Source: a bacterium (GTDB taxonomy: Bacteria; Patescibacteriota; Minisyncoccia; Phycocordibacterales; UBA2100). From it: DNA of 64,000 nucleotides. The translations under genes and the position numbers were made by a program. The notes beneath the pieces were generated by a model. That model had not been told where the DNA came from. It did not search any database and was given only the letters and a program-made list of their open reading frames with translations. Shown piece by piece: positions 4,201 to 36,714 of the stretch; within the stretch, counting starts at the first letter, position 1; the number at the start of each line of letters is the position of its first letter. Location: NCBI GenBank assembly GCA_030648265.1, contig JAUSHX010000010.1:26253-90252 (forward strand), written 5' to 3'.

Positions 4201-4262
4201 AACTCGCGCTGACAACTTCATGAAAGACTTTTCTTTTGGAAACATTCGACTATAATCACCGT

Positions 4263-5342
4263 ATGAAGAATTACTACGATATACTTGGGATCACCAAGAC
4301 GGCAAGTGAGGAAGAAATAAAATCAGCATTCAGAAAACTCGCGCATAAATACCATCCCGATAAAAAAGGCGGGGATGAGAAGAAATTTAAAGAGGCGAGC
4401 GAGGCGTACGCGGTGCTTTCCGATAAGAAAAAGCGCGCGGAATACGATACGTATGGAAAAACATTCGCCGGTGGAGGCCAGCAGGCCGGCGGATTCGGAG
4501 GCGGATTCGATTTCTCTGATTTCGCGCAGGGGGGCGCGAACTTCGGCGATCAGGAGTTTGACCTCGGTGACATTTTCGGAGAATTTTTCGGAGGTAGTGC
4601 AAGAGGCACAGCGGGCAAAAGGCGAGGCCGCGACATTTCAGTAGACATTGAACTGCCGTTCCGCGAAGCGATATTCGGTACTGAACGCAGGATGCTAATC
4701 GCCAAAATGAGCGTGTGCGGAGCATGCGACGGCACGGGCGCCAAAAAGGGAACAAAGCGCACAACGTGCAGTTCGTGCAACGGCAAGGGTAACATTCGCG
4801 AAGCTCGAAATACGTTCTTTGGCAATTTCACAACGACGCGCACGTGCCCGCGCTGTTTAGGCCGCGGCGAGGTGCCGGAACACCAGTGCGACATCTGCAA
4901 GGGACAGGGCATCGCGAAGAGGGAAGAAGAAATCCATGTCATCGTTCCTGCCGGAGTATCAGACGGTGAAATGATACGCATGCCAGGGAAAGGCGAGGCC
5001 GCAGCAGGAGGAGTCGCCGGCGATCTCTATGTCAAACTGCATGTCAAGGCCGACAGGGCATTTACCCGCGAAGGAAACAATCTTTTGACGGTTCTTCATC
5101 TGAAGCTTACCGATGCGCTCTTGGGCGGTGAATTTAAGGTTGAGACGCTTGACGGCCCGCTCTCTGTCAGCGTCCCGCAGGGTGTCGCACACGGAGAACT
5201 TCTGCGTGTGCGTGAGCGCGGGGTCCCGCACGGCAGGGGCTCGCGCGGGGATTTATTGGTGCGGGTTGATATCCAATTTCCGAAGAAACTCTCGCGCACG
5301 GCGAGCGAACTTATTGCGCAACTGCGCAAGGAGGGGCTGTAA
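4263..5342 (+). CDS. dnaJ: molecular chaperone DnaJ
   Basis: J-domain (YYDILGI...HPDK), G/F-rich linker, and four CxxCxGxG zinc-finger repeats. The ORF track gives a TTG start at 4236; the ATG at 4263 has TATAAT 6 nt upstream. Confidence 0.95.
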
Positions 5343-5400
5343 GACTAGGGGCTAGGTTTTAGGGGATAGGGTATAGTAACACTTGAATCAAAATGGTTCA
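5343..5400 (+). repeat. intergenic repeat (family 2, degenerate) between dnaJ and the CvpA-like gene
   Basis: GACTAGGGGCTAGGTTTTAGGGGATAGGGTATAGTAAC. Confidence 0.5.
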
Positions 5401-5408
5401 TCACGAAC

Positions 5409-5894
5409 ATGGCTCCAATAAATGTTTTCTTCAGCCACATTCCAATAGATTGGATAATAATTGCTGTTTTTGCGATTATTGTTGCATTTGACGCAATGCG
5501 CTCCGGGTCTGGAAGAGCCACCTCTTTTGCGTTATCTCTACCGGCCACTCTTTTTATCGTCGCGGAACTTCCTCATGCAAAGTTCTTGTCTGGTGTCACT
5601 GAACAATTCACATCGTCCGTCCTTAAGGCTCTTCTTTTCGGGATTGTTTTTGTCGTCACATACATACTTGTGCGCAGAATGAGCGCTCCTGATGCAACCG
5701 ACAGCGGGCAAATCATACAGGCCATCGTGGCGGGTATTGCCGCAACTGCTGTCGCAATAGTAGTATGGTTGCAAGTTCCGGAGCTTCAATCAGTCTGGCA
5801 CTTCGGCGCGCAGATACAGGCGATTTTCGGCGAGGCATATCGCTTTTGGTGGATAGCCGGCTCATTCGCCGCACTTGCGTTTGTGAGAGATTAA
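5409..5894 (+). CDS. CvpA-family membrane protein (colicin V production protein-like)
   Basis: About 160 aa with four predicted TM segments; N-terminus IDWIIIAVFAIIVAFDAMRSG resembles the CvpA N-terminus. Confidence 0.5.
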   Translation: MAPINVFFSHIPIDWIIIAVFAIIVAFDAMRSGSGRATSFALSLPATLFIVAELPHAKFLSGVTEQFTSSVLKALLFGIVFVVTYILVRRMSAPDATDSGQIIQAIVAGIAATAVAIVVWLQVPELQSVWHFGAQIQAIFGEAYRFWWIAGSFAALAFVRD

Positions 5895-5935
5895 AAAAAT
5901 GGCCACCCCCCTTGCGAGAAGTGGCCATCTAGTCG
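5895..5935. terminator. hairpin between convergent genes (candidate bidirectional terminator)
   Basis: aaaaaaatggccaccccccttgcgagaagtggccat: stem ATGGCCAC/GTGGCCAT flanked by an A-run. It lies between the CvpA-like gene (+) and the FabH-like gene (-). Confidence 0.5.
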
Positions 5936-5976
5936 TTTACCGGTCGCACTTGATGGCGACATCAGTATAGTGTGCG

Positions 5977-7008
5977 TCAGAACCGGAAATATGCGAGCGA
6001 GAACGACATTCCCGCTGAGGCAACCGCGGCGAGAACTCGCATTCCACGGCGGAGTGAACCATCTTTCAGTGCGAGTGCCATCGCCGCCGGAATCGCCGCC
6101 GATACGACATTTCCGCAACTCGCGTAGATGTCGTATATCTTGTTGCCAAGTCCCATTTGTGTAGCGGCCTCCGCCCAGTCGCTCTTTGAAGAGCTATGGG
6201 TAAACAAGATGTCCACGTCCTCGGCTTTTATTCCGAACTTTTGGAACTCCTCCACGATAAAGGGAAGTCCGTAAAGTCGCAGTTCGGCCCCGTAGGAAGT
6301 AAACAGCCCTGGTCCGTCCTTGGCAATGCGTGGTGAGGATATTGGATGAGCACCGTACCACGGAGGCGTGATTGTGCATAAATCGAACAAATCATTCTGC
6401 GTCGTGTTTGAATGAAGCCAGGGATTTGAGTCCTGCACAAGAATCGTCGCCGTCGCCGCTTCTCCGATGGTGAGCGTCGGGAAACGCCATTCAAGTTGCT
6501 CGCGCGACGAAAACTTGAAGAGTTTAGCGAGGGTGTCGCTGTGCGTCAGACTAAACTCCTGGTTTACAATCATTACCCGCCGATAGCCCCCGATATTCAT
6601 CAGCGCCTCTGCCACCTTAGCAGCCTTCATCCACCCGTCGCATGCTTCTTTTAAATCGAAGCATTCAACGGTGTTTAGGCCAAGTTCGTGGGCAACAAGA
6701 TTGGCTGTTGATGGCTCGACGAGCTCGGAGTGCACTCCAGCGACAATTAGAAGGTCGATTTTGTTGTCATCGACCAACTTGTCCATCGCCTCCTTACTTG
6801 CCTGGACGGTGAGTCCAAGTGATGACTCATTGTGTCCAAGCCACATGCGAGTATCCGAACCACTGCCTTTTAATAGCCGTTCAATGAGCCTTAGAGTGGC
6901 TGGCAAATTGTCCGAAAATTCATCGCTTCTGGAACTAATTTCCTGGAGCACGTCGTGATTCGTAACCTTCCTGGAGGGAAGGGCCACTGCCACACTCTCG
7001 ACTTTCAT
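5977..7008 (-). CDS. FabH-like 3-oxoacyl-ACP synthase III family condensing enzyme (thiolase fold)
   Basis: 343 aa; C-terminal GNVVSAAIPAAMALAL...GMRVLAAVASAGMSFSLAYFRF matches the KAS III C-terminal domain; there is no flanking fatty-acid synthesis operon. Confidence 0.6.
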   Translation of the reverse strand: MKVESVAVALPSRKVTNHDVLQEISSRSDEFSDNLPATLRLIERLLKGSGSDTRMWLGHNESSLGLTVQASKEAMDKLVDDNKIDLLIVAGVHSELVEPSTANLVAHELGLNTVECFDLKEACDGWMKAAKVAEALMNIGGYRRVMIVNQEFSLTHSDTLAKLFKFSSREQLEWRFPTLTIGEAATATILVQDSNPWLHSNTTQNDLFDLCTITPPWYGAHPISSPRIAKDGPGLFTSYGAELRLYGLPFIVEEFQKFGIKAEDVDILFTHSSSKSDWAEAATQMGLGNKIYDIYASCGNVVSAAIPAAMALALKDGSLRRGMRVLAAVASAGMSFSLAYFRF

Positions 7009-7153
7009 GCTATCTCCTTACGCGGCTCTGGCCGCTCAAATGCTACACTATGAATGCCCCTGCGGGCCTACTGCGATAATGCCATGACTAAGCGATCAAG
7101 TCAAACGAACATTTAGTACGTGATACCATAACAAGACATTGTATTAGGAATAT

Positions 7154-8743
7154 ATGCTTAGCGTCACAAACAGCCTGCTTGCCATGACAGCTCTTTTTAA
7201 CTTAGGGCTGATGGTGCTGATTCTGCGCGGAAGCGGGGGAAAACCGACAAATCTATTCTTCAGCATTTTCTTAAGCGCGCTGTCTCTTTGGGCGCTTGCC
7301 CTTATAGGGTTTGAACTGGCTCTGTCCGACCAATTAGCTCTCATCTTCGGCAAAATCACTTATGCCGCAGCCCTCACAGTCGGAATGAGTTTCTACTTGT
7401 TCTCAATCGCTTTTCCTGAAGAGAGCATGCCGAGCAAATATACATTGTCTATAACTATATGTTCGTCAATTCTTTACATATTGGCGCTTTTTATACCATC
7501 GTTTTTGGCACGTAGTTTGCATGTGTACTCCTGGGGCAGGCAGATTGAACTTGGTATTCCCGAATATCTATTATTTGCTTTTATGTTCGTATCTTTTTAT
7601 GTAGGAGGACTTATCCGCACATGGACGAAGTACTTTTACGCTAAAGGAATCACGCGTTTACAGCTTCTGGTTATCTCACTCAGCGTGACTATAACCGGAC
7701 TCGGTGGAATGTATTACAACCTCGTGCTTGCATCTCCCTTCCTGCGAGACTATAGCTACTTGTGGACAGGACCGCTCTTCACCACCTCAATCGCGGTATT
7801 AATAACATATTCCGTATTTCGCTTGAAATTGTTCAACGCAAAAGTCATAGTAACTGAGCTCCTCATTTCGCTTCTTTGGATCGTTACTTTTTTGAGAACG
7901 ATGTTGGCAGTGGACCGGCAAGAACAATTATTCAACGCCCTTTTATTCTTCCTCTCTCTCATCATCGGCGCCCTGCTCATTAGGAGTGTTCGGCGTGAAG
8001 TTGCACAGCGCGAACTGATTCAAAAACAGGAGCAGGAATTGGAGGTGGTGAATCACCAACAGGAAGGGCTTTTACACTTCATCAGCCATGAGGTAAAGGG
8101 GTATCTCACGAAGAACGAAGCGGGGTTTGCCGCAATTACAGAAGGTGATTACGGGGCTGTCTCTGAACCATTGAAAACAATGGCGGCTTCGGCGCTTGTA
8201 GACACGCGCAGGGGGGTGGAGACTGTTATGGACATACTTGACGCATCCAATTTGAAAAAGGGAACTGTCGCATACGACAAAAAAGCTTTCAATCTTTCTT
8301 CCGCAATTCAGGATGTCGTGAATTCTCTCAAACCAATGGCACAGGAAAAAAGAATCTCTCTAGAATATACAAACGGCACGGGCGGTCCGGCAACAATCAA
8401 TGGAGATGAGAACAAATTACGCCGGCACGTAATACGGAACTTGATAGACAATTCTATCCGTTACACGCCTTCCGGAAACGTGAGCGTAGAGCTAACCAAA
8501 AATGGTTCTGCACTCCGAATGACCGTTACAGATACCGGCGTCGGCATTTCTCCGGAAGATATGCAAAAGTTATTTACGGAAGGCGGCCACGGCTCCGATT
8601 CAATAAAAGTAAACGTGCACTCAACCGGATACGGACTTTACATCGCCAAATCAATCGTGGAAGCGCACGGAGGCAAAATCTGGGCCGAATCGGATGGGAA
8701 GGCCAGAGGTTCAAGGTTTATTGTTGAACTTCCTGCCGTGTAG
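7154..8743 (+). CDS. sensor histidine kinase (polytopic membrane sensor + HisKA + HATPase_c)
   Basis: About 7 TM segments N-terminal; H-box HFISHEVKG; G-box region DTGVGISPEDMQKLF...GYGLYIAKSIVEAHGG. No response regulator is adjacent. Confidence 0.85.
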   Translation: MLSVTNSLLAMTALFNLGLMVLILRGSGGKPTNLFFSIFLSALSLWALALIGFELALSDQLALIFGKITYAAALTVGMSFYLFSIAFPEESMPSKYTLSITICSSILYILALFIPSFLARSLHVYSWGRQIELGIPEYLLFAFMFVSFYVGGLIRTWTKYFYAKGITRLQLLVISLSVTITGLGGMYYNLVLASPFLRDYSYLWTGPLFTTSIAVLITYSVFRLKLFNAKVIVTELLISLLWIVTFLRTMLAVDRQEQLFNALLFFLSLIIGALLIRSVRREVAQRELIQKQEQELEVVNHQQEGLLHFISHEVKGYLTKNEAGFAAITEGDYGAVSEPLKTMAASALVDTRRGVETVMDILDASNLKKGTVAYDKKAFNLSSAIQDVVNSLKPMAQEKRISLEYTNGTGGPATINGDENKLRRHVIRNLIDNSIRYTPSGNVSVELTKNGSALRMTVTDTGVGISPEDMQKLFTEGGHGSDSIKVNVHSTGYGLYIAKSIVEAHGGKIWAESDGKARGSRFIVELPAV

Positions 8744-8756
8744 TACAATCGACCTT

Positions 8757-9092
8757 ATGTTGAAAGATACAGACATCAAGAAACTGAAAGCTGTCTTTCC
8801 GACGAAAAAGGACATCCGCGGCATAGTTCAGCAAGAACTGAAAGGGACTGATGCGCGTTTTGATAGGATTGAGACCGTTGTCGTAAGTACTAATCAGCAC
8901 ATAAGTGTGCTTGTATCACGAATCGACAGTATGGAAGAAACGCTTGAACGACTGGTGCAGGGCGTAGACAAACTCGTTACGGAATTTCAGGAGCTCCGCC
9001 GAGAATATGCTGCGATGAGCGAGCAGTTAACACGCCATGAGCGTTGGATTAAACAAATCGCAAGAAAAGCTGGCGTCGTGCTTGCAGAATAA
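8757..9092 (+). CDS. hypothetical small coiled-coil protein
   Basis: ORF with a heptad-like, charged sequence. The ORF track begins at 8694 inside the kinase gene; the ATG at 8757 is the first start after the kinase stop. Confidence 0.4.
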   Translation: MLKDTDIKKLKAVFPTKKDIRGIVQQELKGTDARFDRIETVVVSTNQHISVLVSRIDSMEETLERLVQGVDKLVTEFQELRREYAAMSEQLTRHERWIKQIARKAGVVLAE

Positions 9093-9154
9093 ACCCTGGC
9101 AACAGATACTCTCCACAGTTTAGAACTGGCCTTATTTTCTGGTATATTTAACCG

Positions 9155-10096
9155 ATGCAAAAGAAACGACTTTTCACTGGTCTTCAGCCCTCCGGCGATC
9201 TCCACATAGGCAACTACTTGGGCGCGCTTCGGCCATTCGTATCTATGTATGGAGAGTACGAGAGCATGCTCATGGTTGCTGATTACCACGCGCTCACAAC
9301 GCTTAAAGACGCGCCGGAACTCCGCGAAAACATACTGAATGCTGTCAGGGATTATCTCGCTATCGGGGTGGACCCGAAGCGCGCGACTATTTTCCAGCAG
9401 TCCGCTGTTCCTGCGCACACGGAGCTCGCATGGATACTGGAGTGCATGGTTACAGTCCCATTTCTCATGCAAGCGCACGCATATAAAGACAAGGTATCAA
9501 AGGGGCTTGATGCGAACGCAGGTCTTTTTGCATACCCAATGCTCATGGCGGCCGATATCCTCATGTACGACACCGACGTGGTTCCTGTGGGGCAGGACCA
9601 GAAACAGCACGTTGAGTACGCGCGCGAGGCGGCCTCGAAATTCAACAAGGCTTACGGAGACACTTTCAAAGAGCCAAGGGAACAAATCCTCCATCCGGTT
9701 GCCGTGCCGGGTACAGACGGCAGGAAAATGAGCAAGAGCTATGGCAACACCATTCCGCTTTTTGGAACAAGGGATGAGATTCAAAAGGCCGTGATGAGCA
9801 TTCTTACCGATTCAAAAGGGGAAAGCCCCGAAAACGTGTATGCAATTCATCGGCTTGTAAAGGACGAGACAGAAATTGCATCGCTCTATAAAACAAACAA
9901 AGGGAAGTACAAGGTCGTGAAGGATGCTCTTGCCTCCGACATTGAAGCTCTCGTGGCGCCTATGCGGGAACGACGCGGGTCAATCAGCGATGCGGACGTC
10001 ATTCGTATCTTGAAAGGGGGTAAAGAGAAAGCTCGCGAACAGGCAGAGGCAAAGATGCTGGTTGTCAGGCAAAAAGTCGGCGTTTCAATCTCGTAA
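9155..10096 (+). CDS. trpS: tryptophan--tRNA ligase
   Basis: Class I HIGH-like motif (GDLHIGNYLGA), KMSKS and the TrpRS core. Confidence 0.93.
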   Translation: MQKKRLFTGLQPSGDLHIGNYLGALRPFVSMYGEYESMLMVADYHALTTLKDAPELRENILNAVRDYLAIGVDPKRATIFQQSAVPAHTELAWILECMVTVPFLMQAHAYKDKVSKGLDANAGLFAYPMLMAADILMYDTDVVPVGQDQKQHVEYAREAASKFNKAYGDTFKEPREQILHPVAVPGTDGRKMSKSYGNTIPLFGTRDEIQKAVMSILTDSKGESPENVYAIHRLVKDETEIASLYKTNKGKYKVVKDALASDIEALVAPMRERRGSISDADVIRILKGGKEKAREQAEAKMLVVRQKVGVSIS

Positions 10097-10105
10097 ATAC
10101 TACGT

Positions 10106-11506
10106 ATGTCCAGAACACTGATAAAAGATTTGCGTGACAATATCGGTAACGAGGTCACAATTTCTGGGTGGGTTTCTGTTCGCCGCAACCAGGGTAAAAT
10201 GGTCTTTTTTGATTTCCGTGATGCGACCGGCACTATTCAGGGAGTCGTCCTGCCCGCCTCCTCCGCAATGGAGGAGGCGAAAACACTGCGTACCGAATAT
10301 GTAGTTTCAGTAACAGGAGAGGTGGTGAAAAGGGGAGAAAAAAATGTCCAGCAGGGAAAGGAAAACGGCGACCTTGAACTGCGTATTGAAGGCATTGTGA
10401 CGTTAAATACCTCCGAAACCCCTCCGTTTGACGTGACATCCGACACGTCCGTCGTTGGCGAAGAAACGCGCCTTGAATACCGGTATCTTGACCTCCGCAG
10501 CGAGAGGATGCAAAAAAATATCCGCATGAGGAGCGAATTTGTACGTAGAGTCCGGGAATTCCTCTTCAGAAAATCATTCACCGAAATTGAGACTCCGCTT
10601 CTCACGGAGTCCACGCCGGAGGGCTCGCGGGATTTTGTCGTGCCGTCCCGTCTGCATCCGGGCTCCTTTTACGCGCTTCCACAGGCGCCCCAGCAATACA
10701 AGCAACTACTGATGGTTGGCGGTTTTGAGAAGTATTTCCAGATAGCGCGCGCCATGCGCGACGAAGATCTGCGCGCAGACCGCGGCTTTGAGCATTCGCA
10801 GGTGGATATTGAAATGTCCTTCGTTGAGGAAAACGATGTGATGGACCTCGTGGAGGAAATGATGATTGAGGTTTCAGAGGCGATGGGCTTTACCGTGAAG
10901 GATACGCCGTTCCCTCGATTTACCTACGCAAAAGCTATGGCGAAATTCGGCGCCGATAAATTTGACCTCCGTACGGAGGAAGAAAGGGCGCGTGGAATAC
11001 TCGCATATGCGTGGGTATACCGTTTCCCGTTCTTCGAAAAGACCGATGAGGGAACATGGACATTCACGCATAATCCTTTTTCCAAGGCGATTGATGAGCA
11101 CGCGCCACTGCTACTGAAAGGAGAAAAGATTGGCGAAATCTTAACTGGCCAATACGATCTCGTGTGCAACGGCTACGAGACCGGCGGAGGAAGTATTCGC
11201 GAACACAAACCTGAATATCTCAAAAGCGTTTACAAAATTATGGGATACACCGAATATGAGATAGAGGAGCGGGTAGGACATATGCTGAAAGCGTTTACCT
11301 ATGGTGCGCCCCCGCACGGAGGTATCGCACTGGGGATTGAGAGGATTTTGATGACGCTCACCGGAGAGAAATATCTGCGGGAGGTTCAGGCATTCCCAAT
11401 GACGCGCGGCGGCCAAACTGCCGTCATGAAAGCGCCAAAACCGCTCACGAAAGAACAACTTCTTGAACTTGGAATTAGCGTTACTAAAGCCGGAAAAAAA
11501 GCATGA
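10106..11506 (+). CDS. aspS: aspartate--tRNA ligase (short form lacking the GAD insertion domain)
   Basis: N-terminal OB fold; motif 2 FYALPQAPQQYKQLLMVGGFEKYFQIARAMRDEDLRADRGFEHSQVDIEMSF; motif 3 GGGSIR...GIERI. At 466 aa it is shorter than the roughly 590 aa bacterial type. Confidence 0.9.
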   Translation: MSRTLIKDLRDNIGNEVTISGWVSVRRNQGKMVFFDFRDATGTIQGVVLPASSAMEEAKTLRTEYVVSVTGEVVKRGEKNVQQGKENGDLELRIEGIVTLNTSETPPFDVTSDTSVVGEETRLEYRYLDLRSERMQKNIRMRSEFVRRVREFLFRKSFTEIETPLLTESTPEGSRDFVVPSRLHPGSFYALPQAPQQYKQLLMVGGFEKYFQIARAMRDEDLRADRGFEHSQVDIEMSFVEENDVMDLVEEMMIEVSEAMGFTVKDTPFPRFTYAKAMAKFGADKFDLRTEEERARGILAYAWVYRFPFFEKTDEGTWTFTHNPFSKAIDEHAPLLLKGEKIGEILTGQYDLVCNGYETGGGSIREHKPEYLKSVYKIMGYTEYEIEERVGHMLKAFTYGAPPHGGIALGIERILMTLTGEKYLREVQAFPMTRGGQTAVMKAPKPLTKEQLLELGISVTKAGKKA

Positions 11507-12240
11507 CGAGCAAATTCATCGTTGCGACCCAAAACTTCACCGGGCCGCTTGAGACCCTTTTTAATCTTATAGAAGAACGCCGGCTTTCTGTTTCCGACGT
11601 TTCTCTCGCAGAGGTGACCGACGCGTATCTTTCGTATGTGGAAAAACTTCCGTCGCTCCCCTTAGGCGAAACGGCGCAATTTGTTCTCGTTGCCTCAACA
11701 CTGCTCCTGATAAAGTCGCGCATGCTTCTGCCCTCGCTGGAGTTGTCCGAAGACGAGCGCGAGAGCGTGGAGGAACTTGAGCGGCGTCTTGCACGCTACG
11801 CCATTATTCGCAAATCCGCCAAACTCCTGCGTCGTGCGTGGGGCACGGCACCGCTCGTTTTCCCCAAACGCGCTCCGATGCCTGATCCTGTATTTTCTCC
11901 GGGGCAAATCGGTCTAACCTCTATTGTGCAGGCGATGATGCGTATGATAAACATATTGCCCAATGTCCTCCAATCCGCAAAAGTGCTTGTGTCTCCCGTT
12001 TTGGCCCTTGAAGAGGTCATTGTCCGGCTTGAGAAGCGACTGACGGGAGCCGTGCATGCCCGGTTCAGCGAATTGACACGGTCGGCCGACAGGCACGAGG
12101 TTATTGTATACTTCCTCGCAATGCTGGAACTGGTTCGCTCCGGTTCAATAAGCGCAACGCAGGAAAGGATTTTCAGCGACATCACGCTGGCGACCGAGTC
12201 GCTTATGGCGCCGAAATACGGCGCGGGGAGTAGCAGCTAG
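11503..12240 (+). CDS. scpA: segregation and condensation protein A
   Basis: ScpA N-terminal signature (LETLFNLIEERRL...DVSLAEVTDAYLSYV); followed by scpB. Confidence 0.85.
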   Translation: MTSKFIVATQNFTGPLETLFNLIEERRLSVSDVSLAEVTDAYLSYVEKLPSLPLGETAQFVLVASTLLLIKSRMLLPSLELSEDERESVEELERRLARYAIIRKSAKLLRRAWGTAPLVFPKRAPMPDPVFSPGQIGLTSIVQAMMRMINILPNVLQSAKVLVSPVLALEEVIVRLEKRLTGAVHARFSELTRSADRHEVIVYFLAMLELVRSGSISATQERIFSDITLATESLMAPKYGAGSSS

Positions 12241-12262
12241 CCACTAGGGTATAGCCACTAGC
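12233..12262 (+). repeat. intergenic repeat (family 2) between scpA and scpB
   Basis: GCTAGCCACTAGGGTATAGCCACTAGCAA: an exact copy of the atpF-atpH intergenic element. Confidence 0.7.
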
Positions 12263-12290
12263 AACTGAAATCTAGTATAGTGAAAGATTT

Positions 12291-12878
12291 ATGGAAGTAG
12301 AAACACAATCACGGACAAGCACAAATATCGTGGAATTGGCATCACAGGCCGAAGCTTTTTTGTTTACGGAAGGCGAGCCGATGGCACGAGCTCGGTTAAA
12401 AAAACTTCTTTCGTGCACAGATGAAGATCTCGCCTCGGCGCTTCTTTCTCTCTCGAGGCGGCAAGAGGGAGGCGGTGTGACGCTTGTCCTGACGGACAGG
12501 GAGGTAGCGCTGGCCGTTGCCCCTTCGTGCGCGCCGGCAATCCGTGCCGAGAACGAGAAGGAACACGAGCGCGAAATCGGAGACGCAGGGCTCGAGGTGC
12601 TTGCTATCTTGCTGTACCGTGGCCCCTCTACGCGCTCTCAAATTGATTATATTCGCGGTGTGAACACGAGTACCACCTTGCGCACGCTCCTTGCGCGCGG
12701 TCTCGCACTCCGCGCGGAAAATCCAAATGATTCGCGCGAGTACCTGTATCGGCCGACAGCTGAACTGCTCGCACACCTTGGAGCCTCAAGAATAGGGGAC
12801 TTGCCGGACTATGAAAAAATAACCGGAGAACTCGCGGCGTTTGAAACAACGAGGACGAATTCCGACGCACAGCTATGA
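12291..12878 (+). CDS. scpB: segregation and condensation protein B
   Basis: ScpB winged-helix repeats (EAFLFTEGEP..., LEVLAILLYRGPSTRSQIDYIRGV). Confidence 0.85.
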   Translation: MEVETQSRTSTNIVELASQAEAFLFTEGEPMARARLKKLLSCTDEDLASALLSLSRRQEGGGVTLVLTDREVALAVAPSCAPAIRAENEKEHEREIGDAGLEVLAILLYRGPSTRSQIDYIRGVNTSTTLRTLLARGLALRAENPNDSREYLYRPTAELLAHLGASRIGDLPDYEKITGELAAFETTRTNSDAQL

Positions 12879-13882
12879 TTGACGCGATGACGACAGGCGA
12901 GAAAGTTGAATCGGTGGTTGGGCGCGGGCTGATTCCTATCATTGCACTTTTTTTACTGTTCCTCGCGGCGATTGCGGTAGTCGTTGAACACAAGTACCCG
13001 CGTCCGATTGCACAGGCGCAACCACAGTCGCAGGCAGCATCAGCGGCCGAGACGGAGGACGCGTTCGCCGAACTGTCTCTCGTTGCAAAAGCAGCAATCG
13101 TCATTGACCTTAAAAATAACAAAACCCTATACGCCCTGAACCAGGATGCGCAACTCCCGCTGGCGTCGCTTGCAAAAGTGCCCCTCGCTCTCGTTGTGAG
13201 CGATGCCTTGCCTCCAGACACAGTGATAACGATTCCTCGCGATACGGCGCCCAAAGGAAGCGCGGAGCGCTTGGCAAAAGGCGAAAGGTGGCGCGTGCAA
13301 GACATCATTGATTTCACTCTCGTTGCCTCATCAAACGAGGGTGCGGAAATCCTTGCGAGCGCGGTCGACGAGTCAATACGAGAGAAGTACCCGAATGCGC
13401 CGGAGAATTCTGCGGCTATTTGGCGCATGAATGCGCTCGCAGAGCAACTCGGTCTTACTCGCACATACTTCCTCAACGCAAGCGGTCTTGATATCAGTAC
13501 GACTCTTTCCGGCGCATACGGTTCTGCACGAGACATTGCGGCGCTCTTTGCGTATGCCGCCACGGAACATCTTTTCATATTCAGTAAAACCGCCGATGAC
13601 GGCTTGTTATTGACGTCGGCAAACGGCAAGAATACTACCAGAGCATTCAATACCAATGAAGCGCAGGGACAGATACAGGGCATCATGATGGGAAAAACGG
13701 GCATCACGGACCTCGCAGGAGGCAATCTCGCGGTCGTTTTTGACGCGGGCTATGGGCATCCGATTGTAGCGGTGGTGCTCGGCTCAACGCGCGAGGGGCG
13801 CTTCTCGGATATGCGCCAGCTTGTGTCATATGCGAGAGTTGCGGTTGCGGAACAGAAAGAAGTTCTCGCAACTGGTCAGTAA
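12875..13882 (+). CDS. D-alanyl-D-alanine carboxypeptidase (serine-type, PBP5/6-like)
   Basis: N-terminal TM segment; SxxK (SLAK), SxN (SSNEG) and KTG (KTGIT) motifs. Confidence 0.8.
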   Translation: MIDAMTTGEKVESVVGRGLIPIIALFLLFLAAIAVVVEHKYPRPIAQAQPQSQAASAAETEDAFAELSLVAKAAIVIDLKNNKTLYALNQDAQLPLASLAKVPLALVVSDALPPDTVITIPRDTAPKGSAERLAKGERWRVQDIIDFTLVASSNEGAEILASAVDESIREKYPNAPENSAAIWRMNALAEQLGLTRTYFLNASGLDISTTLSGAYGSARDIAALFAYAATEHLFIFSKTADDGLLLTSANGKNTTRAFNTNEAQGQIQGIMMGKTGITDLAGGNLAVVFDAGYGHPIVAVVLGSTREGRFSDMRQLVSYARVAVAEQKEVLATGQ

Positions 13883-13894
13883 AGGAAGTACAAT

Positions 13895-14962: not shown

Positions 14963-15094
14963 AAATTGTTATGAGCAACGCGAATTACAATTTCTTAACC
15001 CTGTTAAATCCCGCCGAAGGCGTGGCGGCAAAGCCGCATTTAACAGGGTGCAAGTTGCTTCTAAGCTCGTTAACACTCGCCAAGAAGAACTAAC
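14963..15094 (+). promoter_or_regulatory. conserved leader module, copy 4, abutting the ftsW ATG
   Basis: GAAATTGTTATGAGCAACGCGAATTACAATTTCTTAACCC + hairpin TGTTAAAT...ATTTAACA + GGGTGCAAGTTGCTTCTAAGCTCG...CAAGAAGAACTAAC-ATG. It starts at the mraY stop codon. Confidence 0.75.
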
Positions 15095-16198: not shown

Positions 16199-16297
16199 CC
16201 GGAATACGGCCGCGCTTTAAAGGACGATGGCGCGGCATGCGAATTAGCAAATTCGAAACTTGGTGATTTCGCCAAAATCACGTGGTAAAATACCGTC

Positions 16298-25434: not shown

Positions 25435-25569
25435 ATGGGCAATCCTACTTGAATTCCCCGTTTCCAGCAAAAGACGCCGTGTTAGAGAATGTGTTAGAGA
25501 ATTTTGTGCAGAAATTTGTCTACACCTTCGCGAGTATGGAAATAATACTCTGCGGCACTTGAGGCGGAT

Positions 25570-26424: not shown

Positions 26425-27618
26425 TCATTCTTCCATCATATCAAGAACGAGAGCGCCCCATGTGAAGTTGTGCGCCCCAATCCCCGTTCCTGTTTCCGGA
26501 TTGAAGCACTCGCGGAAGCCGGAGCGTTCAAGAAGCGCGATGCTTTTCTTGCGGATATCCTCGGCCTCTGCGGTAAAACCGTATCGCATGAGCCCATGGT
26601 AGATGAACCAGTGCGATCCTATCCACACCGGTCCCCGCCACGAAAAATCTTCCGCTTCCGGCCGGTACGACATTTCCCGAATGGATGTCGTGCGGATGCC
26701 GAACGGCGCCGCGAACGTGTCGGGGTTTTTGAGATGTTTTGAAACGACCTCCTCGGCTTCCTCCTTTGTATAAAGACCGGCGAAGAGCGGGATGAAGTGC
26801 GCCCATGTCGCGACTTTAAGCTTCGTGAAATCGGCGCCCATGGCGGACCAGTAGACGCCGTCTTCAAACATCCGCTCGCGCATCGCGCCAGCGACCGCAT
26901 CGGCTTCGCGCTTGAGCGAACTCTCGTACTCATCGCGTTTGAGGTATGCGGCGATTTTTGCGAGCACGCGCAGATTCTCCGCCAAAACCGCGTTAAAGAG
27001 CACGTCTTTTACCCAAAAGAAATTGCGCATGCATCGCCCCGCGTCAAAATCGCATTCTCTGTTTTTGTCCACAAGCTCCGTGCGCTTCGCGAGATGGTCC
27101 TTGAGCGAGACGGCGGACGGCACCCCGAGAGGAATATCAAAGCGCGGCGAGTTGTCCTCACCCGACTCATCCGGACTGATGATGCTCGCAAGATGATGCC
27201 CGTACGGGTCGCGCTCGGAAAGAAGATAATTGTAGTACGCGACGAGTGCGGGAAAAATAGAGGCGAGGAACGATGTGTCCGGCTCGCGGCGGTGTATCTC
27301 CCACGCGGCGTACGCGAGCATCGGCGGCTGCGTGAGAGAGCTCGTGCCATCCGTGCCCCAGTGAAAGAGGTGAAGGATTCCAGGCGTCCAATAAATTATG
27401 TGTGGCACAAGGCCGTTTGAGAATTGTTTTGAAAGAAGCGACTGTATCTCGGCCTTCGCGGATTCCACATCGTACCGCGCGAGGACGATGGCGTGGAAGC
27501 ACGAATCCCAAAGCCACTGATACGGATAGTGGTCGCCGGAGGGGACGGTGTATTGGTGGCCGTCCGTTGTGCGGCGATTTTCTTCAAGGAGTTTGCGCGA
27601 CTCGCGATAGACATCCAT
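26425..27618 (-). CDS. (alpha/alpha)6-barrel glycoside hydrolase, GH63/GH37/GDE_C-like (putative trehalase/glucosidase)
   Basis: 397 aa; YPYQWLWDSCFHAI and downstream acidic residues are typical of six-hairpin glycosidases; adjacent to otsB/otsA. Confidence 0.5.
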   Translation of the reverse strand: MDVYRESRKLLEENRRTTDGHQYTVPSGDHYPYQWLWDSCFHAIVLARYDVESAKAEIQSLLSKQFSNGLVPHIIYWTPGILHLFHWGTDGTSSLTQPPMLAYAAWEIHRREPDTSFLASIFPALVAYYNYLLSERDPYGHHLASIISPDESGEDNSPRFDIPLGVPSAVSLKDHLAKRTELVDKNRECDFDAGRCMRNFFWVKDVLFNAVLAENLRVLAKIAAYLKRDEYESSLKREADAVAGAMRERMFEDGVYWSAMGADFTKLKVATWAHFIPLFAGLYTKEEAEEVVSKHLKNPDTFAAPFGIRTTSIREMSYRPEAEDFSWRGPVWIGSHWFIYHGLMRYGFTAEAEDIRKKSIALLERSGFRECFNPETGTGIGAHNFTWGALVLDMMEE

Positions 27619-27630
27619 AATTTCAGTATA

Positions 27631-28473
27631 TCAGAGGGCGCGTGAACGGAACGCGGCAAGCCCCGTTAGAGACCGCGAGGGCTCGCAGCGCATATTCGTC
27701 TCTAACGGGGCAAGCCACAGGAGAAATTTCCGCACGCTTTCCGTATTATTGAGCGTATAGCTGGCCGCCGTCTCGGCGTTTTTTCCGTTCTTCACGCGAA
27801 TTGTGATGCCGCGCCGGAGAGCCCGAAACGCACCCTCGTCTGTCTCATCATTGCCGATAAAGATAGGGACGGCGTTCTTTGAGCTCTTAATGCAGGAGGC
27901 CATCATTGCCGCCGCTCTTCCTTTGTCCCATCCGGCTTTCGGAAGAATGTTGAGAACAAGGATGCCGCCAATGATGTGGAGGCGCGAGGCACCAAAGCGG
28001 CGCGCGATGCGCCGCACTTCGCGCTCTACCGCCCTAGGGTGCACGCGGGCGCGCCTGAAGTGGACGCTTATGGAAAGCTTTTTATCCTCCACATAGACGC
28101 CCTTGTAGCGCTTCTCCAGAGCTGTGAGCCCCTTTCGTGCCGCGCGAAGCGCGCGCATCATCGCGGGAGATACGGCAATCCGCTTTTGCTTTCCCGCGAC
28201 GAACCATTCAAGCCCGTGATTGCCGGCGATTGATACATTGCCGAGGCGGATGCGCTTTTTTACATCCGCGAGCGCGCGGCCCGTAACGATTGCAAGAGGC
28301 ATGCGCCGCGCGCATAGAGAGAGCGCGCGGCGCATGCCCGCGCTCATCCTTGCTTTGTCGGGCTTACTGACGATTGGAGCGAGCGTGCCGTCAAAATCAA
28401 GCATCACGACCGCGCCTCCCGCGCGCTCTATGCGCCGTGCGATTCTGGAGCGATTGGCGAGCGCGTCCCGCAT
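27631..28473 (-). CDS. otsB: trehalose-6-phosphate phosphatase
   Basis: HAD motifs (MLDFDGTLAPI, GNDETDEGAF); precedes otsA. Confidence 0.8.
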   Translation of the reverse strand: MRDALANRSRIARRIERAGGAVVMLDFDGTLAPIVSKPDKARMSAGMRRALSLCARRMPLAIVTGRALADVKKRIRLGNVSIAGNHGLEWFVAGKQKRIAVSPAMMRALRAARKGLTALEKRYKGVYVEDKKLSISVHFRRARVHPRAVEREVRRIARRFGASRLHIIGGILVLNILPKAGWDKGRAAAMMASCIKSSKNAVPIFIGNDETDEGAFRALRRGITIRVKNGKNAETAASYTLNNTESVRKFLLWLAPLETNMRCEPSRSLTGLAAFRSRAL

Positions 28474-28476
28474 ACG

Positions 28477-30687
28477 CTAGCCGATGAGCGCGAGCGCCTT
28501 TATCAATTCCGCCGACCAGCGGTATATGTTGTAATCGCGCACGGAAGCGCGCATTGTCTTCATGCGGCGATGTTGTTCCGCCTTCGGCATGATAAGCGCG
28601 GCATGGAGCGCGGAAGAAGTTTCCTCGGCGCTGTACGGATTGATAAGAATCGCGCCTTTGAGGTCGCGCGACGCTCCGGCAAACTGGCTCAAAACGAGTA
28701 CGCCCGATTCGTCGCTGCGCGCGGCCGCGAACTCCTTCGCGACCAAGTTCATGCCGTCGTGCAAAGATGTGACGAGGCAAACGTCCGCAAGCTGGTAAAG
28801 GTTTATGAGTTCGTCGTGTGAGTGATTCCGCTTTTCCAGCATAATCGGCTTCCAATCCTTCGCGCCGAATTTCTTATTGATGCGCTCCGCTTCCCCGGTC
28901 ACTTGAGCGGCATACTCGCGGTATTTCTCCACGGACTCGCGGGTCGGCGCCGCGATTTGCAGCATCGTAAGATTGCCCCTGTATTCGGGATGCGCGTCCA
29001 GTAAGAATTCTATCCCCTTGAATCTCTCCAGTATCCCCTTCGTGTAATCAAGCCGGTCCACGCCGAGCACCAAATGCCTGCTTGTGATGCCAAGGTCTTC
29101 CAGAACTTTCCTACTCGGTTCTTTATGCGCTTCGGCGCTCCCCGGAAACGCGATTGAGATGGGAAACGGCCGTATCAGCGTGCGGTACTCGTTTCTGTAT
29201 ATTGAATACTGCTCGTAATCTATGCGCGATTCAATTTCCTTTCCGACCGTGTCAATAAAATTGTTGCAGTACTGTTGCGTGTGGAATCCGATGAGGTCGG
29301 CCCCGAGCATGCCCTGCAGAATCTCTTTTCGCCACGGGCAAATGCTGAATTGCTCCGCGCTCGGCCACGGAATGTGCCAAAAAAGCGACACTTGGGCATC
29401 GGGGCGGCTTTTCTTAATGAGCGCCGGCAAAAGCGCTAGGTGATAGTCCTGAACCAGAATAATCGGCCGTTCAACATTGCGTATTTCATCAAGAACGGTT
29501 TTTGCGAACAGTCCGTTTACCTTGCGGTACTCCCGCCAATCTTCGGCGCGGAAAAGTGGGCGCACGTGCGCCATGTGGCACAGCGGCCAAAGCGCCTCGC
29601 TTGAGAGACCGCTGTAATATCCCCTCACCTCTTTCGGGGTAAGCCAAACGCGCTTCAGAGTGTACTTCGGCTCCTCCGGCGGGACCGCTATTTTGTCGTC
29701 GGCGTCCACGACCGACTTGTCGGCGTCTCCGCTCCCGTGCGCTATCCACGTCCCTCCGCACGCCTCCATCACGGATTCAAGCGCCGTCACGGCGCCTCCC
29801 GCGGGCACGGACCATTTTGTGCCATTTTTAGTTTTCGTGTGCACGTACGGCTCGCGGTTTGAAACGACAAAGATGGGCCGGTCTTTCAGATACATACGAA
29901 TAAATTCTTTCAGGCGTTCCGCTGTCCACGGCGAATCAATTTTCTCAAGGCGCATGCGGGCCTCCTCGCTCGCCGCATGGCGCGCCTGATGCAGGCTTCT
30001 CGCCACTTTTGATATTTCTCCCGCGAGTGGCTCAAAGAAGCTTGAGCTAGGTTCCGCGTCAATGCCGAAATTTCCCCTGCGCGCCGCCTGCAGAGACGCG
30101 ACCATCCTCGTGATGGCCCGGTAAAAAACCAATCGTACAAGAATGAAAATCGCGATGGCGAATATTAAAATCTGGGAAAATCCCCGAAGCAGGTTGTTGC
30201 GCCAGATATCCGATATGCTCTCGTCTATATACGTGGCGTCTTGAGCGACAGCAAGCGCGCCGATGACGCGCCCGTCTTCGTGAAGCGGCGTCACGTGCAC
30301 GTAGTATGTGCCGTCACTGCGGCGCACAAAGCTTCCGCCTGATTCATCACTGTCCATCACCGTCGTTACGAGTTCGCCGCCGTCTTTAGAAATCGGCACG
30401 TTTGCCGACCCGGCGACCATGGCACCCGAGCTGTCAAAAACGCTTAAACCGGCGAGCCGCTCACTGCTGACAAATCTGTCTATAATTCTCTGCACGGTGC
30501 TCGTCGCGCGCGTGTTGTACGCCGGTTCTATGCTTTCCGCGAGGCTGTCGGCCAATACTTGGCTGCGGGATTGCAGGCGCGATGTAAGTTCAATCTGTTC
30601 TTGGCTCGCCTGATTCAAAGAAAAAAGCCCGACAATAAGGCCTACAACGAGAACGACGCCGCCTGTAATGAGGATGACCTGCCGCAT
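28477..30687 (-). CDS. otsA: trehalose-6-phosphate synthase (GT20) fused to an N-terminal two-TM extracytoplasmic sensor-like domain
   Basis: C-terminal approx. 480 aa with GT20 signatures (ILVQDYHLALLPALIKK..., FWHIPWPS, GxDxLDYxKG). The N-terminal approx. 250 aa has a TM segment, a roughly 150 aa non-cytoplasmic domain, and a second TM segment. Confidence 0.8.
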   Translation of the reverse strand: MRQVILITGGVVLVVGLIVGLFSLNQASQEQIELTSRLQSRSQVLADSLAESIEPAYNTRATSTVQRIIDRFVSSERLAGLSVFDSSGAMVAGSANVPISKDGGELVTTVMDSDESGGSFVRRSDGTYYVHVTPLHEDGRVIGALAVAQDATYIDESISDIWRNNLLRGFSQILIFAIAIFILVRLVFYRAITRMVASLQAARRGNFGIDAEPSSSFFEPLAGEISKVARSLHQARHAASEEARMRLEKIDSPWTAERLKEFIRMYLKDRPIFVVSNREPYVHTKTKNGTKWSVPAGGAVTALESVMEACGGTWIAHGSGDADKSVVDADDKIAVPPEEPKYTLKRVWLTPKEVRGYYSGLSSEALWPLCHMAHVRPLFRAEDWREYRKVNGLFAKTVLDEIRNVERPIILVQDYHLALLPALIKKSRPDAQVSLFWHIPWPSAEQFSICPWRKEILQGMLGADLIGFHTQQYCNNFIDTVGKEIESRIDYEQYSIYRNEYRTLIRPFPISIAFPGSAEAHKEPSRKVLEDLGITSRHLVLGVDRLDYTKGILERFKGIEFLLDAHPEYRGNLTMLQIAAPTRESVEKYREYAAQVTGEAERINKKFGAKDWKPIMLEKRNHSHDELINLYQLADVCLVTSLHDGMNLVAKEFAAARSDESGVLVLSQFAGASRDLKGAILINPYSAEETSSALHAALIMPKAEQHRRMKTMRASVRDYNIYRWSAELIKALALIG

Positions 30688-30814
30688 CCGGATAATGATA
30701 CCCTTGCCGCCCCTTTAATTCAACTGGCAAAAAACAATGCAATATCGGCTCTGTCGCGTACCGCGCCCCCGATGAATCGTCGGCGACGATTTGGTCTGGA
30801 ATTATTCCCATCGC

Positions 30815-34436: not shown

Positions 34437-34446
34437 ATACCATATA

Positions 34447-35718
34447 CTACATACTTTTTATTATTTCTACTGCTTTATCCATCTGTGGGTCATTCTTCGC
34501 TTTTACATCTTCCTCCGTCATCTTGACCTCCACATCGGGCACAATGCCGGTATTCGGGATTTGCTTTCCATCGGGTCCGAGCCATCGTGCAATCGTCAGT
34601 TTCAACGCCGTATCAGATGTTATGTCCACAAGTTCTTGCACGGAGCCCTTGCCGAATGTCGTTTCTCCAACAAGTTTTGCTTTTCCATAATACCGCAGCG
34701 CGTCGGCAAGAATCTCGGAAGCTGAAGCCGAGCCGTGGTCAACAAGAATAACCATTTTTAGATTCTGGTTGAAAATGTCATACCCACGGGAACGATGCAC
34801 GATATTTTGCGCATGGCCAGCATAATCTTCCGTGACTACCACCTTCCCCGCAGGCAAAAACCAACTTGCCATATCCACCGCGGCGTCTAAATATCCGCCT
34901 GGGTTTCCGCGCAAATCAAGAATAAGTTTAGTATCCCCCGATTTGATTAAATCGCGCAGGCCATTTCTGAAAAGGTCGGACGAATTTGCCGTAAAACTCA
35001 TCAGCGAGATGACAAAGACTCCGCCTGGAAGCTCTTTTGTCGTAATGGTCGGAACATCGATGACACCACGCGTCACTTTTATATCTCTTGGCGTAGTCCA
35101 ACCGTCGCGAAGGATTGTCAGAGCAACACTGCTCCCGCCAGGTCCGCGGATCTTCTTCACCGCGGTTGTGATATCCATGCCGTGCGTATCAGTACCGTTT
35201 ATTTTCAAAACCTTATCTCCGCTTTTAATCCCGGCTCTTTCGGCCGGAGACCCTTTTAGAGGCGAGACAACAGTAAGCACTTGGTCGCGCACGGCGATTT
35301 CCATTCCGACACCTTCAAAACTGCCGCTCATGTCGTCAGAAAAGAGCTTGTTATCGCTCGGTGGAAGGAAATATGTATACGGATCATTAAGAGATCCTGC
35401 AAGGCCCGTTATCATCCCCCATACGCGTTCCTGATTTAATTCCGATGTGCTTGTTGCCATCGGCGTGCTTGTAGATACCGCCGCCGGAACAAATTTCTCA
35501 TTGATGATGTTCCATGCCTTCCAAACGGGTGAAAAATCCACATCGGCAGGCTGTGTTCCGGAGGCGGTCAGTTGAGAGGCGATTGACGCGGGAATGTAAG
35601 CGGAAAGCATCCCGCGTATACCGATGGCGTACCCTAAGAGCGCGCACACCACTCCAAGCGCCAGAGCGCCAATGACGGCATTCCGCATGCTTGGAGATTT
35701 ACTGTGCTCTTCCCACAT
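34447..35718 (-). CDS. carboxyl-terminal processing peptidase (S41 family, with PDZ)
   Basis: S41 signatures LDLRGNPGGYLDAAVD and DHGSASASEILA; N-terminal TM segment. Confidence 0.88.
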   Translation of the reverse strand: MWEEHSKSPSMRNAVIGALALGVVCALLGYAIGIRGMLSAYIPASIASQLTASGTQPADVDFSPVWKAWNIINEKFVPAAVSTSTPMATSTSELNQERVWGMITGLAGSLNDPYTYFLPPSDNKLFSDDMSGSFEGVGMEIAVRDQVLTVVSPLKGSPAERAGIKSGDKVLKINGTDTHGMDITTAVKKIRGPGGSSVALTILRDGWTTPRDIKVTRGVIDVPTITTKELPGGVFVISLMSFTANSSDLFRNGLRDLIKSGDTKLILDLRGNPGGYLDAAVDMASWFLPAGKVVVTEDYAGHAQNIVHRSRGYDIFNQNLKMVILVDHGSASASEILADALRYYGKAKLVGETTFGKGSVQELVDITSDTALKLTIARWLGPDGKQIPNTGIVPDVEVKMTEEDVKAKNDPQMDKAVEIIKSM

Positions 35719-35802
35719 TGGGAGGATTATCGCACATTACGATTCAACCCCAAAGTTGCATTGGTATACACCTACCCTGCGCGGATACGTTATAATACGG
35801 CG

Positions 35803-36714
35803 ATGCGCACGAACTATGAGCATAATGGGGTACTCTGGATAGACCTTGAATCTCCGACACAAGACGAAATAAAAGCAATCGTAGACCAGTTCGGAATCAC
35901 GACGATAGTCGCGGAGGAATTGCTGCTACCCTCAACAAAACCACGCGCGGAACTCTATCCGACATTCGCATACATAGTTCTTCACTTCCCGTCTCTGCGC
36001 CGCGCACATAAATCAGTGGAGCAGGAAGTTGATTTCGTGGTCGGCCGCAACTTTATAATCACCGCCCACTACGACATCATTGACCCCCTTCATAAATTCT
36101 CAAAAATCTTTGAGGTCAACTCTATATTGGACAAAAGCAATATGGGAAACCATGCGGGGTTCTTCTTCTTTTACATGCTCAAAAAGCTATATAAAGGAGT
36201 TGAGTACGAGGTGGAGCGCGTCCGGCATCATTTGAGCACGATAGAAGGCGATATTTTTTCCGGCCACGAGGTGGGTATGGTTGAGGCCATATCCAATACC
36301 TCGCGCGACCTCCTGAATCTCCGGCAAACGATAGAACCACACCGGGAGATTCTGCACACCATTGAATCGGAGGGTGCAAAATTGTTCGGCGATGATTTCG
36401 CGCCGTATTTGCGAGCGCTGTCCAATGAATACTACCGGGTTCACAACCACATCATGCGCAACACGGAATCGCTCCACGAACTGCGGGAAACCAATAATTC
36501 GCTCCTCTCAACCAAGGAAAATGAGACGATGCGGGTTCTTACCATCATGGCGCTCCTTACCTTCCCTCTTGCGTTAGTAGTGGCGATTCTGGGGCTTGAC
36601 AGCCCCTACAATCCCATACACGGACAACCCTATGATTTTTGGATAATCGTCGGCATCGTCGTTGTACTCGGTACATGCATGGTCACTTACTTCAAGCACA
36701 AAAACTGGTTTTAG
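35803..36714 (+). CDS. CorA-family divalent cation transporter (variant GMN motif)
   Basis: Cytoplasmic alpha/beta domain plus two C-terminal TM segments; the loop GLDSPYNP sits where GMN normally is. A perfect TATAAT lies 6 nt upstream of the ATG at 35803 (the ORF track begins at a GTG at 35704). Confidence 0.7.
   Translation: MRTNYEHNGVLWIDLESPTQDEIKAIVDQFGITTIVAEELLLPSTKPRAELYPTFAYIVLHFPSLRRAHKSVEQEVDFVVGRNFIITAHYDIIDPLHKFSKIFEVNSILDKSNMGNHAGFFFFYMLKKLYKGVEYEVERVRHHLSTIEGDIFSGHEVGMVEAISNTSRDLLNLRQTIEPHREILHTIESEGAKLFGDDFAPYLRALSNEYYRVHNHIMRNTESLHELRETNNSLLSTKENETMRVLTIMALLTFPLALVVAILGLDSPYNPIHGQPYDFWIIVGIVVVLGTCMVTYFKHKNWF

Follow-up and report, generated by a model that had tools for sequence, protein, structure and literature searches.

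In a 64,000-nucleotide (nt) stretch of contig JAUSHX010000010.1 (GenBank assembly GCA_030648265.1), hereafter the window, hexamers of the form TAnnnT stand just upstream of the ATG start codons of numerous genes, among them dnaJ, trpS, mraY, murG and corA. These hexamers are probably the -10 elements of housekeeping promoters that give rise to leaderless mRNAs, which would be translated from a 5'-terminal AUG. Named relatives of the DnaJ protein at ~70% identity belong to Candidatus Kaiserbacteria and to Parcubacteria group bacteria, and the organism is therefore placed in the candidate phyla radiation (CPR)/Patescibacteria, as an uncultured, Kaiserbacteria-like member of the Parcubacteria. 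The analysis covers the 64-kb window and ~200 kb of related loci. The dnaK-dnaJ-trpS region was compared in seven related genomes (DnaJ 70-85% identical; 21-kb loci) and the mraY-murG region across ten metagenome contigs.

The window gene set comprises 66 open reading frames (ORFs), picked on length and codon-position guanine-plus-cytosine (GC) content, with the first in-frame ATG called as the start, a rule that is blind to the upstream sequence. A TAnnnT box begins at -12 in nine of these genes, at -13 in eight and at -14 in three, against a background of about 1.8 genes per offset elsewhere in the -40 to -15 region, and a box at -12 to -14 is present in 19 of the 66 genes (29%). The same offsets are occupied before 63 of the 1954 non-start ATGs (3.2%; p = 1.8e-13 versus gene starts) and before 13 of the 198 non-start ATGs in intergenic DNA, and equivalent three-offset windows placed elsewhere upstream of the same genes contain the motif in 8.1% of cases (p = 8e-7 versus -12 to -14). 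Among 165 genes in the seven related loci, for which external gene calls were used, the box precedes 39 (24%), with 16 at -12, 12 at -13 and 12 at -14, and the first-ATG caller yielded the same positional peak in the relatives. When the first base was relaxed ([ACG]AnnnT), no positional peak was observed, and such sites were not used to enlarge the class. Only one of the nine -12 boxes begins with TAA, the -13 and -14 boxes are out of frame and peaks are absent at -9 and -15; an artefact of in-frame stop codons behind the -12 peak is therefore ruled out. The sequence-only reading had first singled out five hexamer/ATG pairs (dnaJ, corA, murG, mraY and trpS). Their coordinates are exact, each has a 6-nt spacer, and the upstream enrichment has a sharp peak at -12 to -14, both in the window and in the relatives. 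The pattern is not due to chance.

The composition of the boxes is that of a promoter element. Forty-seven sites from the window and its relatives were aligned on the hexamer. The three positions left free in the search favour T (24/47), A (35/47) and A (25/47), which restores TATAAT, and the three bases 5' of the hexamer favour T (24/47), G (25/47) and then G or T, corresponding to the extended -10 motif TGn. This motif is found in nine of the 19 window sites (p = 8e-7) and nine of the 28 sites of the relatives (p = 3e-5), or 18 of 47 overall, and a weak enrichment of TT is visible 17 nt upstream of the hexamer. The commonest hexamers between -20 and -1 of 180 genes are AAAATC, in first place, followed by TATACT, TATAAT and GGTATA. 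Together, these features mark the hexamers as putative sigma-70 -10 recognition elements and correspond to no known ribosome-binding signal.

Conservation in orthologues follows the same lines. Each of the eight genomes has an unchanged TATAAT upstream of dnaJ, while the spacer, 6-8 nt long, is entirely different in sequence between them, and a second conserved, -35-like block (CTTTgC) is located 16-17 nt 5' of the hexamer, so that the region has the appearance of a classic two-block promoter footprint. In five of seven genomes, TTTTCTGnTATATT stands before trpS, again at -12 to -14. Five close relatives share AGGAAGTACAAT-N6-ATG upstream of mraY with differing spacers, and the more distant mraY of L059 (53% identical) has TATAAT at -12. 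In six close relatives murG is preceded by TAAAAT or TGT-TAAACT at -12/-13, the hexamer turning over with its position kept, and the murG of L059 (46% identical) has TGC-TATAAT at -14. The grpE box is retained as TATACT or TATAAT in five relatives (L002, L005, L007, L064 and L066).

All of the box-led starts are ATG, and 12 of the 19 box-led genes contain an upstream GTG or TTG that a longest-ORF rule would choose. An NCBI DnaJ protein (359 amino acids, aa), 100% identical to that of the window, begins at ATG 4263, and the Logan gene call for CorA (303 aa) begins at ATG 35803 rather than at GTG 35704. For CysS (511 aa) and MurG (380 aa), Logan gene calls likewise agree with the ATG behind the box. 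The first position of the Pfam L9_N profile aligns with residue 1 of ribosomal protein L9 when translation begins at ATG 25434 and not at TTG 25470, and the Pfam AdoHcyase profile begins at residue 2 of AhcY; an exact-protein look-up of AhcY from ATG 56793 returned no match, and its start rests on Pfam only. Alignments of the orthologues run from residue 1, with agreement of the N-termini. The longest mraY ORF would start at GTG 13895, which lies inside the spacer and is not conserved in the relatives, whereas ATG 13901 is. The external calls and Pfam N-termini favour the ATG behind the box, and the rule put forward in the sequence-only reading, that the ATG after a -10 box be preferred over the longest ORF, is therefore sound for box-led genes, holding where it could be checked (DnaJ, CorA, CysS, L9, AhcY and MraY).

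The boxes occur in a lineage in which Shine-Dalgarno (SD) sequences appear to be essentially unused. No SD words are found among the top-ranked hexamers in the -20 to -1 region of the 180 genes. SD four-base cores occur between -16 and -5 in 14 of the 165 genes of the relatives, compared to 12 of 165 in a control window, and AGGAG or GGAGG is found in six of the 165. Genes inside operons, where the gap runs from -4 to 12 nt, have neither an SD nor a box, and between box and ATG the 6-8-nt spacers are too short to hold an SD. The earlier claim that no GGAGG-like sequence precedes any start was too strong, since the FabH-like gene has AAGGAG (7014-7019, minus strand) 6 nt before its ATG, the gene at 17583 has CGGAGAG and mraY has AGGAAG; what stands of it is that SD use is close to nil. 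The FabH-like site is the sole canonical SD in the window, and the orthologue in L004 has the SD-like GAGGGG upstream. Among the relatives, GAAGGAGG-N6-ATG is found twice, in two relatives, and AAGGAGGT-N6-ATG once, both far too long for chance (L007 ~12920-12940, minus strand; L065 ~16619-16640, minus strand; L005 ~7070-7089). These rare perfect SDs may belong to recently acquired genes or may be a sign of a retained anti-SD. About half of the Parcubacteria are reported to be without the CCUCCU anti-SD (Tsurumaki et al. 2022, PMC9297842). A genome scan for 16S tails that do not start with C after GGATCA (GTCGTAACAAGGTA-N12-16-TGCGGNTGGATCAD) returned 43 loci, none from Parcubacteria, and is uninformative; two Patescibacteria metagenome-assembled genomes, not demonstrably relatives of the lineage, showed GGATCATCGCC tails. 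In two Patescibacteria metagenome-assembled genomes, L022 (7781-7835) and L031 (6653-6710), the 16S 3' tails read GGATCATCGCCTTTTCC, with the anti-SD core CCTCC changed to TCGCC.

Taken together, these data suggest that the hexamers would act as the -10 elements of sigma-70-type promoters, often of the extended -10 form TGnTAtAaT. RNA polymerase would take the A of the ATG as its first base or, where the spacer is 8 nt long, begin 1-2 nt earlier, and the resulting mRNAs, lacking both a 5' untranslated region and an SD, would be translated from their 5'-terminal AUG. This mode would serve roughly a quarter to a third of the genes, including some that lie a few bases past the previous stop codon and whose promoter would fall inside the upstream gene; the box of the MGH1-like glycoside hydrolase gene is located within the 3' end of the gene preceding it (gap 12 nt). 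Tightly packed or overlapping genes with neither box nor SD would presumably depend on coupled translation, and a set of highly expressed genes would use a separate structured leader cassette.

The position, consensus and conservation of the hexamers and the lack of SDs are apparent in the DNA itself, and the motif enrichment, the recovery of TATAAT and TGn, the conserved box and distance, the ATG N-termini and the agreement of the seven relatives all favour the leaderless reading. Transcription start and ribosome loading are assigned by analogy with Deinococcus and Mycobacterium, in which this architecture has been linked to leaderless mRNAs by experiment (PMC12340547, PMC3898074, PMC3160421, PMC6028130). 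Several observations weigh against the reading. Because rare perfect SDs exist, the ribosome probably still reads the SD, and leadered transcripts may occur; SDs in this lineage are rare rather than absent, and the leader cassette discussed below is not the further instance for which it had been taken. The AGGAAG of mraY is conserved just 5' of its box and might serve another role. The signal at a classical -35 is weak. When positions 1-20000 were scanned for TTGACA/TATAAT, 27 sites were found versus 18.2 expected, with trpS the only one of the five pairs to be flagged, and this consensus scan had no discriminating power. Several boxes are themselves weak (TAGTGT, TAATGT), boxes situated shortly past an upstream stop codon could belong to genes translated by read-through instead, and the sample is limited to 64 kb plus ~200 kb of related loci.

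The strongest competing explanation, itself unlikely, accepts the hexamers as real promoters and holds that most protein comes from longer transcripts reading through from upstream, whose translation would begin by termination-reinitiation or in some other way that needs no SD, with leaderless mRNAs in the minority, or that transcription starts several nt upstream and gives short leaders. In its favour, seven of the 19 boxes are located less than 40 nt past an upstream gene on the same strand, and other genes without an SD have an extended -10 situated 9-38 nt upstream, such as ychF (42680-43780, minus strand), with TGATATACT 13 nt before its ATG, and the gene at 47131, with GGGTATAAT 11 nt upstream. 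It follows that some leadered mRNAs in this lineage must be initiated without an SD. The sharp preference for spacers of 6-8 nt, with the distance kept while the spacer sequence drifts, would however not be expected were the distance to the ATG of no importance. YchF is a universally conserved ATPase that, according to work cited in PMC12641178, is linked to the regulation of leaderless mRNA translation.

It is considerably less likely that TAnnnT at -12 is not a promoter element but a non-SD ribosome-binding signal or A/U-rich enhancer on leadered mRNAs, comparable to the group B type of the Bacteroidota. The near absence of SD use would agree with such a signal, as would the A/T-rich stretch that directly precedes the ATG in certain genes for ribosomal proteins and ATP synthase. 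The sequences separating the box from the ATG are, however, not A/T-rich (for example caccgt, acggcg and accgtc), and the sigma-70 invariants T-12, A-11 and T-7 are accompanied by a TATAAT interior and TGn. Moreover, the box is rare before tightly coupled internal genes, being found in three of the 16 genes with an upstream gap of 15 nt or less and in 16 of the 48 with a longer measurable gap, and the identical motif is also seen farther from the ATG, at distances that vary. A chance or compositional artefact, arising from AT-rich intergenic DNA, in-frame upstream stops or biased start calling, can be dismissed as extremely improbable: TAnnnT is indeed commoner in intergenic than in coding DNA (8.1% versus 3.2% per three-offset window), but it is enriched over the other offsets of the same regions, a single -12 box starts with an in-frame stop, starts were called motif-blind in the window and externally in the relatives, and the boxes are conserved in orthologues.

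A conserved cassette of ~57 nt precedes eight genes, namely rplQ, rpsI, dnaK, ftsW, an RNase T-like gene, rpmA, atpA and atpF, and ends in CTAA(C/G/T) 0-2 nt before the ATG. The sequence-only reading had proposed that this leader module shares the leaderless geometry. This does not hold, as TAAGAAT-N7-ATG is found in two of the eight copies (2277 and 23969), the copy at 1039 has a 9-nt spacer and the other five have TAACAAA, CAAGAAG or TAAGAAA, without the final T, and it is contradicted by a covarying helix. For 14 copies, RNAalifold predicts an 8-bp helix in which a distal box, GU(G/C/A)UAAGA(G/U), ~45 nt upstream, pairs with a proximal box, (C/A)UCUAA(C/G/U)AU, that takes in the AUG or lies directly next to it. 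Pairing in the helix stands at 97% versus 83% in shuffles, none of 500 shuffles reaching 97%, and is lost on a shift of one to three columns; covariation (G-C/C-G/A-U and U-A/G-C) is seen within single genomes. Because the covarying helix pairs the distal box with start-codon bases, the model suggests that the distal box is transcribed and that the module genes are leadered. Reading the distal GGGTnTAAG as a -10 box was rejected, with A-11 and T-7 missing in that register. The module is a separate element and not another leaderless instance. An Rfam search of the window and the module region gave no family match, with only generic hairpin/microRNA hits below threshold.

The dnaK, ftsW and atpF copies of the module are accompanied just upstream by a degenerate inverted copy, forming a long REPIN/MITE-like palindrome. 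The ftsW cassette (14963-15094, ~130 nt) is an insertion specific to the genome of the window and is missing from five relatives (L053-L057, 86-88% identity), in which the ftsW ATG lies 2 nt past the mraY stop codon. Because the insertion is absent where ftsW follows mraY so closely, the cassette seems to be mobile and seems obliged to supply by itself the means of starting ftsW expression. It may represent a new SD-independent initiation or processing element, possibly turning internal cistrons into 5'-AUG mRNAs. There is a modest chance, well short of even, that the lineage expresses its genes almost wholly without SD pairing and combines three start modes, namely leaderless mRNAs from extended -10 promoters next to the ATG, coupling for packed genes and this mobile palindromic cassette before ribosomal, chaperone, ATP synthase and division genes.

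The window has a GC content of ~50% and contains densely packed housekeeping genes, including rplQ, rplM, rpsI, grpE, dnaK, dnaJ, trpS, aspS, scpAB, murF, mraY, ftsW and murG, as well as rplI, rpmA, corA, cysS, ychF, the atp operon and ahcY. No tRNA, rRNA or Rfam-recognised RNA was found in the 64 kb. The box-led starts, the SD counter-example and the module copies are given in Table 1.

Table 1. Putative -10 boxes before start codons, the canonical Shine-Dalgarno counter-example and the leader-module copies of the window (positions are those of the window)
Gene or feature	Box	Spacer (nt)	Start	Span	Strand	Remark
grpE	TGT-TATACT	8	ATG 1521	1504-1523	+	longest ORF starts at GTG 1503
dnaJ	TATAAT (4251-4256)	6	ATG 4263	4248-4265	+	conserved, 8 genomes
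candidate small ORF	TACAAT (8744-8749)	7	ATG 8757	8741-8759	+	
trpS	TGG-TATATT (9143-9148)	6	ATG 9155	9140-9157	+	promoter scan: TTTAGA-18-TATATT with TG
mraY	TACAAT (13889-13894)	6	ATG 13901	13886-13903	+	conserved in relatives
murG	TGG-TAAAAT (16286-16291)	6	ATG 16298	16283-16300	+	conserved position
rplI (L9)	TAGGAT (25442-25447)	7	ATG 25434	25432-25450	-	Pfam L9_N
MGH1-like glycoside hydrolase	TGA-TATACT (27625-27630)	6	ATG 27618	27616-27633	-	
GT20 (trehalose-phosphate synthase-like)	GGG-TATCAT (30695-30700)	7	ATG 30687	30685-30703	-	
corA	TATAAT (35791-35796)	6	ATG 35803	35788-35805	+	independent gene call
cysS	TAGTGT (36712-36717)	7	ATG 36725	36709-36727	+	weak box
DUF5671 gene	CTG-TACAAT (42361-42366)	6	ATG 42354	42352-42369	-	
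92-aa ORF	TGG-TATTAT (42645-42650)	7	ATG 42637	42635-42653	-	
132-aa ORF	TACTAT (52644-52649)	6	ATG 52637	52635-52652	-	
atpB (ATP synthase a subunit)	TGT-TAAACT (53430-53435)	8	ATG 53421	53419-53438	-	
alpha/beta-hydrolase	TGG-TATATT (54735-54740)	7	ATG 54727	54725-54743	-	
ahcY	TATACT (56802-56807), overlapping TACTGT	8 (TACTGT: 6)	ATG 56793	56791-56810	-	
DHO_dh-like gene	TGG-TATAGT (60011-60016)	7	ATG 60003	60001-60019	-	
DUF1761 gene	TAATGT (61767-61772)	7	ATG 61759	61757-61775	-	weak box
HlyIII-family gene	TGA-TATCGT (62045-62050)	7	ATG 62058	62042-62060	+	
FabH-like gene	canonical SD, TAAGGAG	6	ATG 7008	7006-7022	-	counter-example
leader module before dnaK				2225-2282	+	separate class, not leaderless geometry
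other leader-module copies				54-109(+), 985-1042(+), 15042-15100(+), 24669-24727(+), 23964-24021(-), 50730-50784(-), 51812-51867(-)		
inverted partial module copies				2156-2210(-), 14952-15005(-), 51893-51945(+)		

The candidate small ORF in Table 1 (8694-9092, plus strand) follows a histidine kinase gene. The external caller begins it at ATG 8694, which gives an overlap of 50 nt with the kinase gene; the alternative ATG behind the TACAAT box would shorten the protein to 111 aa under the box rule. A T is strongly preferred directly before the ATG (position -1), being found in 29 of 62 window genes and 68 of 118 genes in the relatives (p = 6e-12), in all start classes. CTAG/ATAG-rich tandem repeats with short units of ~7-8 nt (e.g. 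GCTACAAGCTGCAAGCTACAAGCCACTAGC) occur 15-50 nt 5' of -10 boxes or ATGs, at 1470-1502, 12240-12290, 47542-47585, 49054-49095 and 51294-51335, upstream of grpE, scpB, atpG, atpH and others. Similar repeats are present in L004, L005, L007, L054 and L056, and the repeats may act as upstream elements of promoters or bind a factor. Between the dnaK stop codon and the dnaJ promoter lies a perfect palindrome of 30 bp (ACCATTAGTGTACATATGTACACTAATGGT; 4171-4200) with TTAG...CTAA ends. Its 9-N4-9 layout is not the 9-N9-9 of CIRCE, and it may be a terminator or an operator.

Gene callers tuned to SDs or to the longest ORF will misplace starts in these genomes. If the leaderless reading is correct, it would also offer a testable answer to how ribosomes find their starts in SD-poor Parcubacteria, through a 5'-terminal AUG in between a quarter and a third of genes, and would agree with reports that the group has small ribosomes and a reduced complement of biogenesis factors. 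The Parcubacteria that lack the anti-SD (PMC9297842) belong to the same broad lineage, and for them it was concluded independently that starts are not mainly signalled by SD pairing; that study deals with the rRNA only and offers no alternative start mechanism.

Among known systems, a -10 motif adjacent to ORFs has been described in Deinococcus-Thermus (de Groot 2014, as cited in PMC12340547), and roughly one in three Deinococcus genes has TANNNT located 6-7 bp 5' of its ORF (Zhong et al. 2025, PMC12340547). As in Deinococcus, the box is conserved before orthologues and useful for start-codon correction (PMC12340547). The remaining Deinococcus genes have a clear GGAG ribosome-binding site and the interior of the -10 is uninformative (TACACT), whereas here the SD is nearly absent, TGn is frequent and the interior is TATAAT; leaderless expression has been validated by experiment in Deinococcus (PMC12340547) and is predicted from the sequence here. 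The 'TA-led' genes of Zheng et al. (2011, PMC3160421) and group C of GeneMarkS-2 (Lomsadze et al. 2018, PMC6028130) are computational definitions of leaderless genes, which similarly have a Pribnow-like signal ~12 nt upstream with a 6-8-nt spacer. Genome-wide, those definitions call for the signal in >20% of genes; the shares in the DNA sampled here are 29% for the 64 kb of the window and 24% for the seven 21-kb loci. In medium-GC genomes the signal is TAtaaT, as it is here (PMC3160421, PMC6028130), but group C genomes have SDs on internal genes, which are without SDs in the present lineage. Unlike in group B genomes, the box does not precede all genes, as the 3/16 at short gaps shows, and has promoter-specific features. 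In Mycobacterium tuberculosis (Cortes et al. 2013, PMC3898074) the -10 likewise directly precedes the start codon in many transcription units and the -35 is poorly conserved; that high-GC genome also uses GTG starts and its transcription starts were mapped (PMC3898074), whereas here all box-led starts are ATG and the transcription starts are predicted from the DNA. The main homes of leaderless genes in the surveys are the Actinobacteria and Deinococcus-Thermus (PMC3160421, PMC6028130), and the literature searched contained no paper tying CPR, Patescibacteria, Parcubacteria or Saccharibacteria to leaderless transcription. Leaderless architecture is already known as a kind, and the Parcubacteria lineage would be a carrier not previously described, by which the candidate phyla radiation would join the Actinobacteria and Deinococcus in a leaderless-dominant lifestyle.

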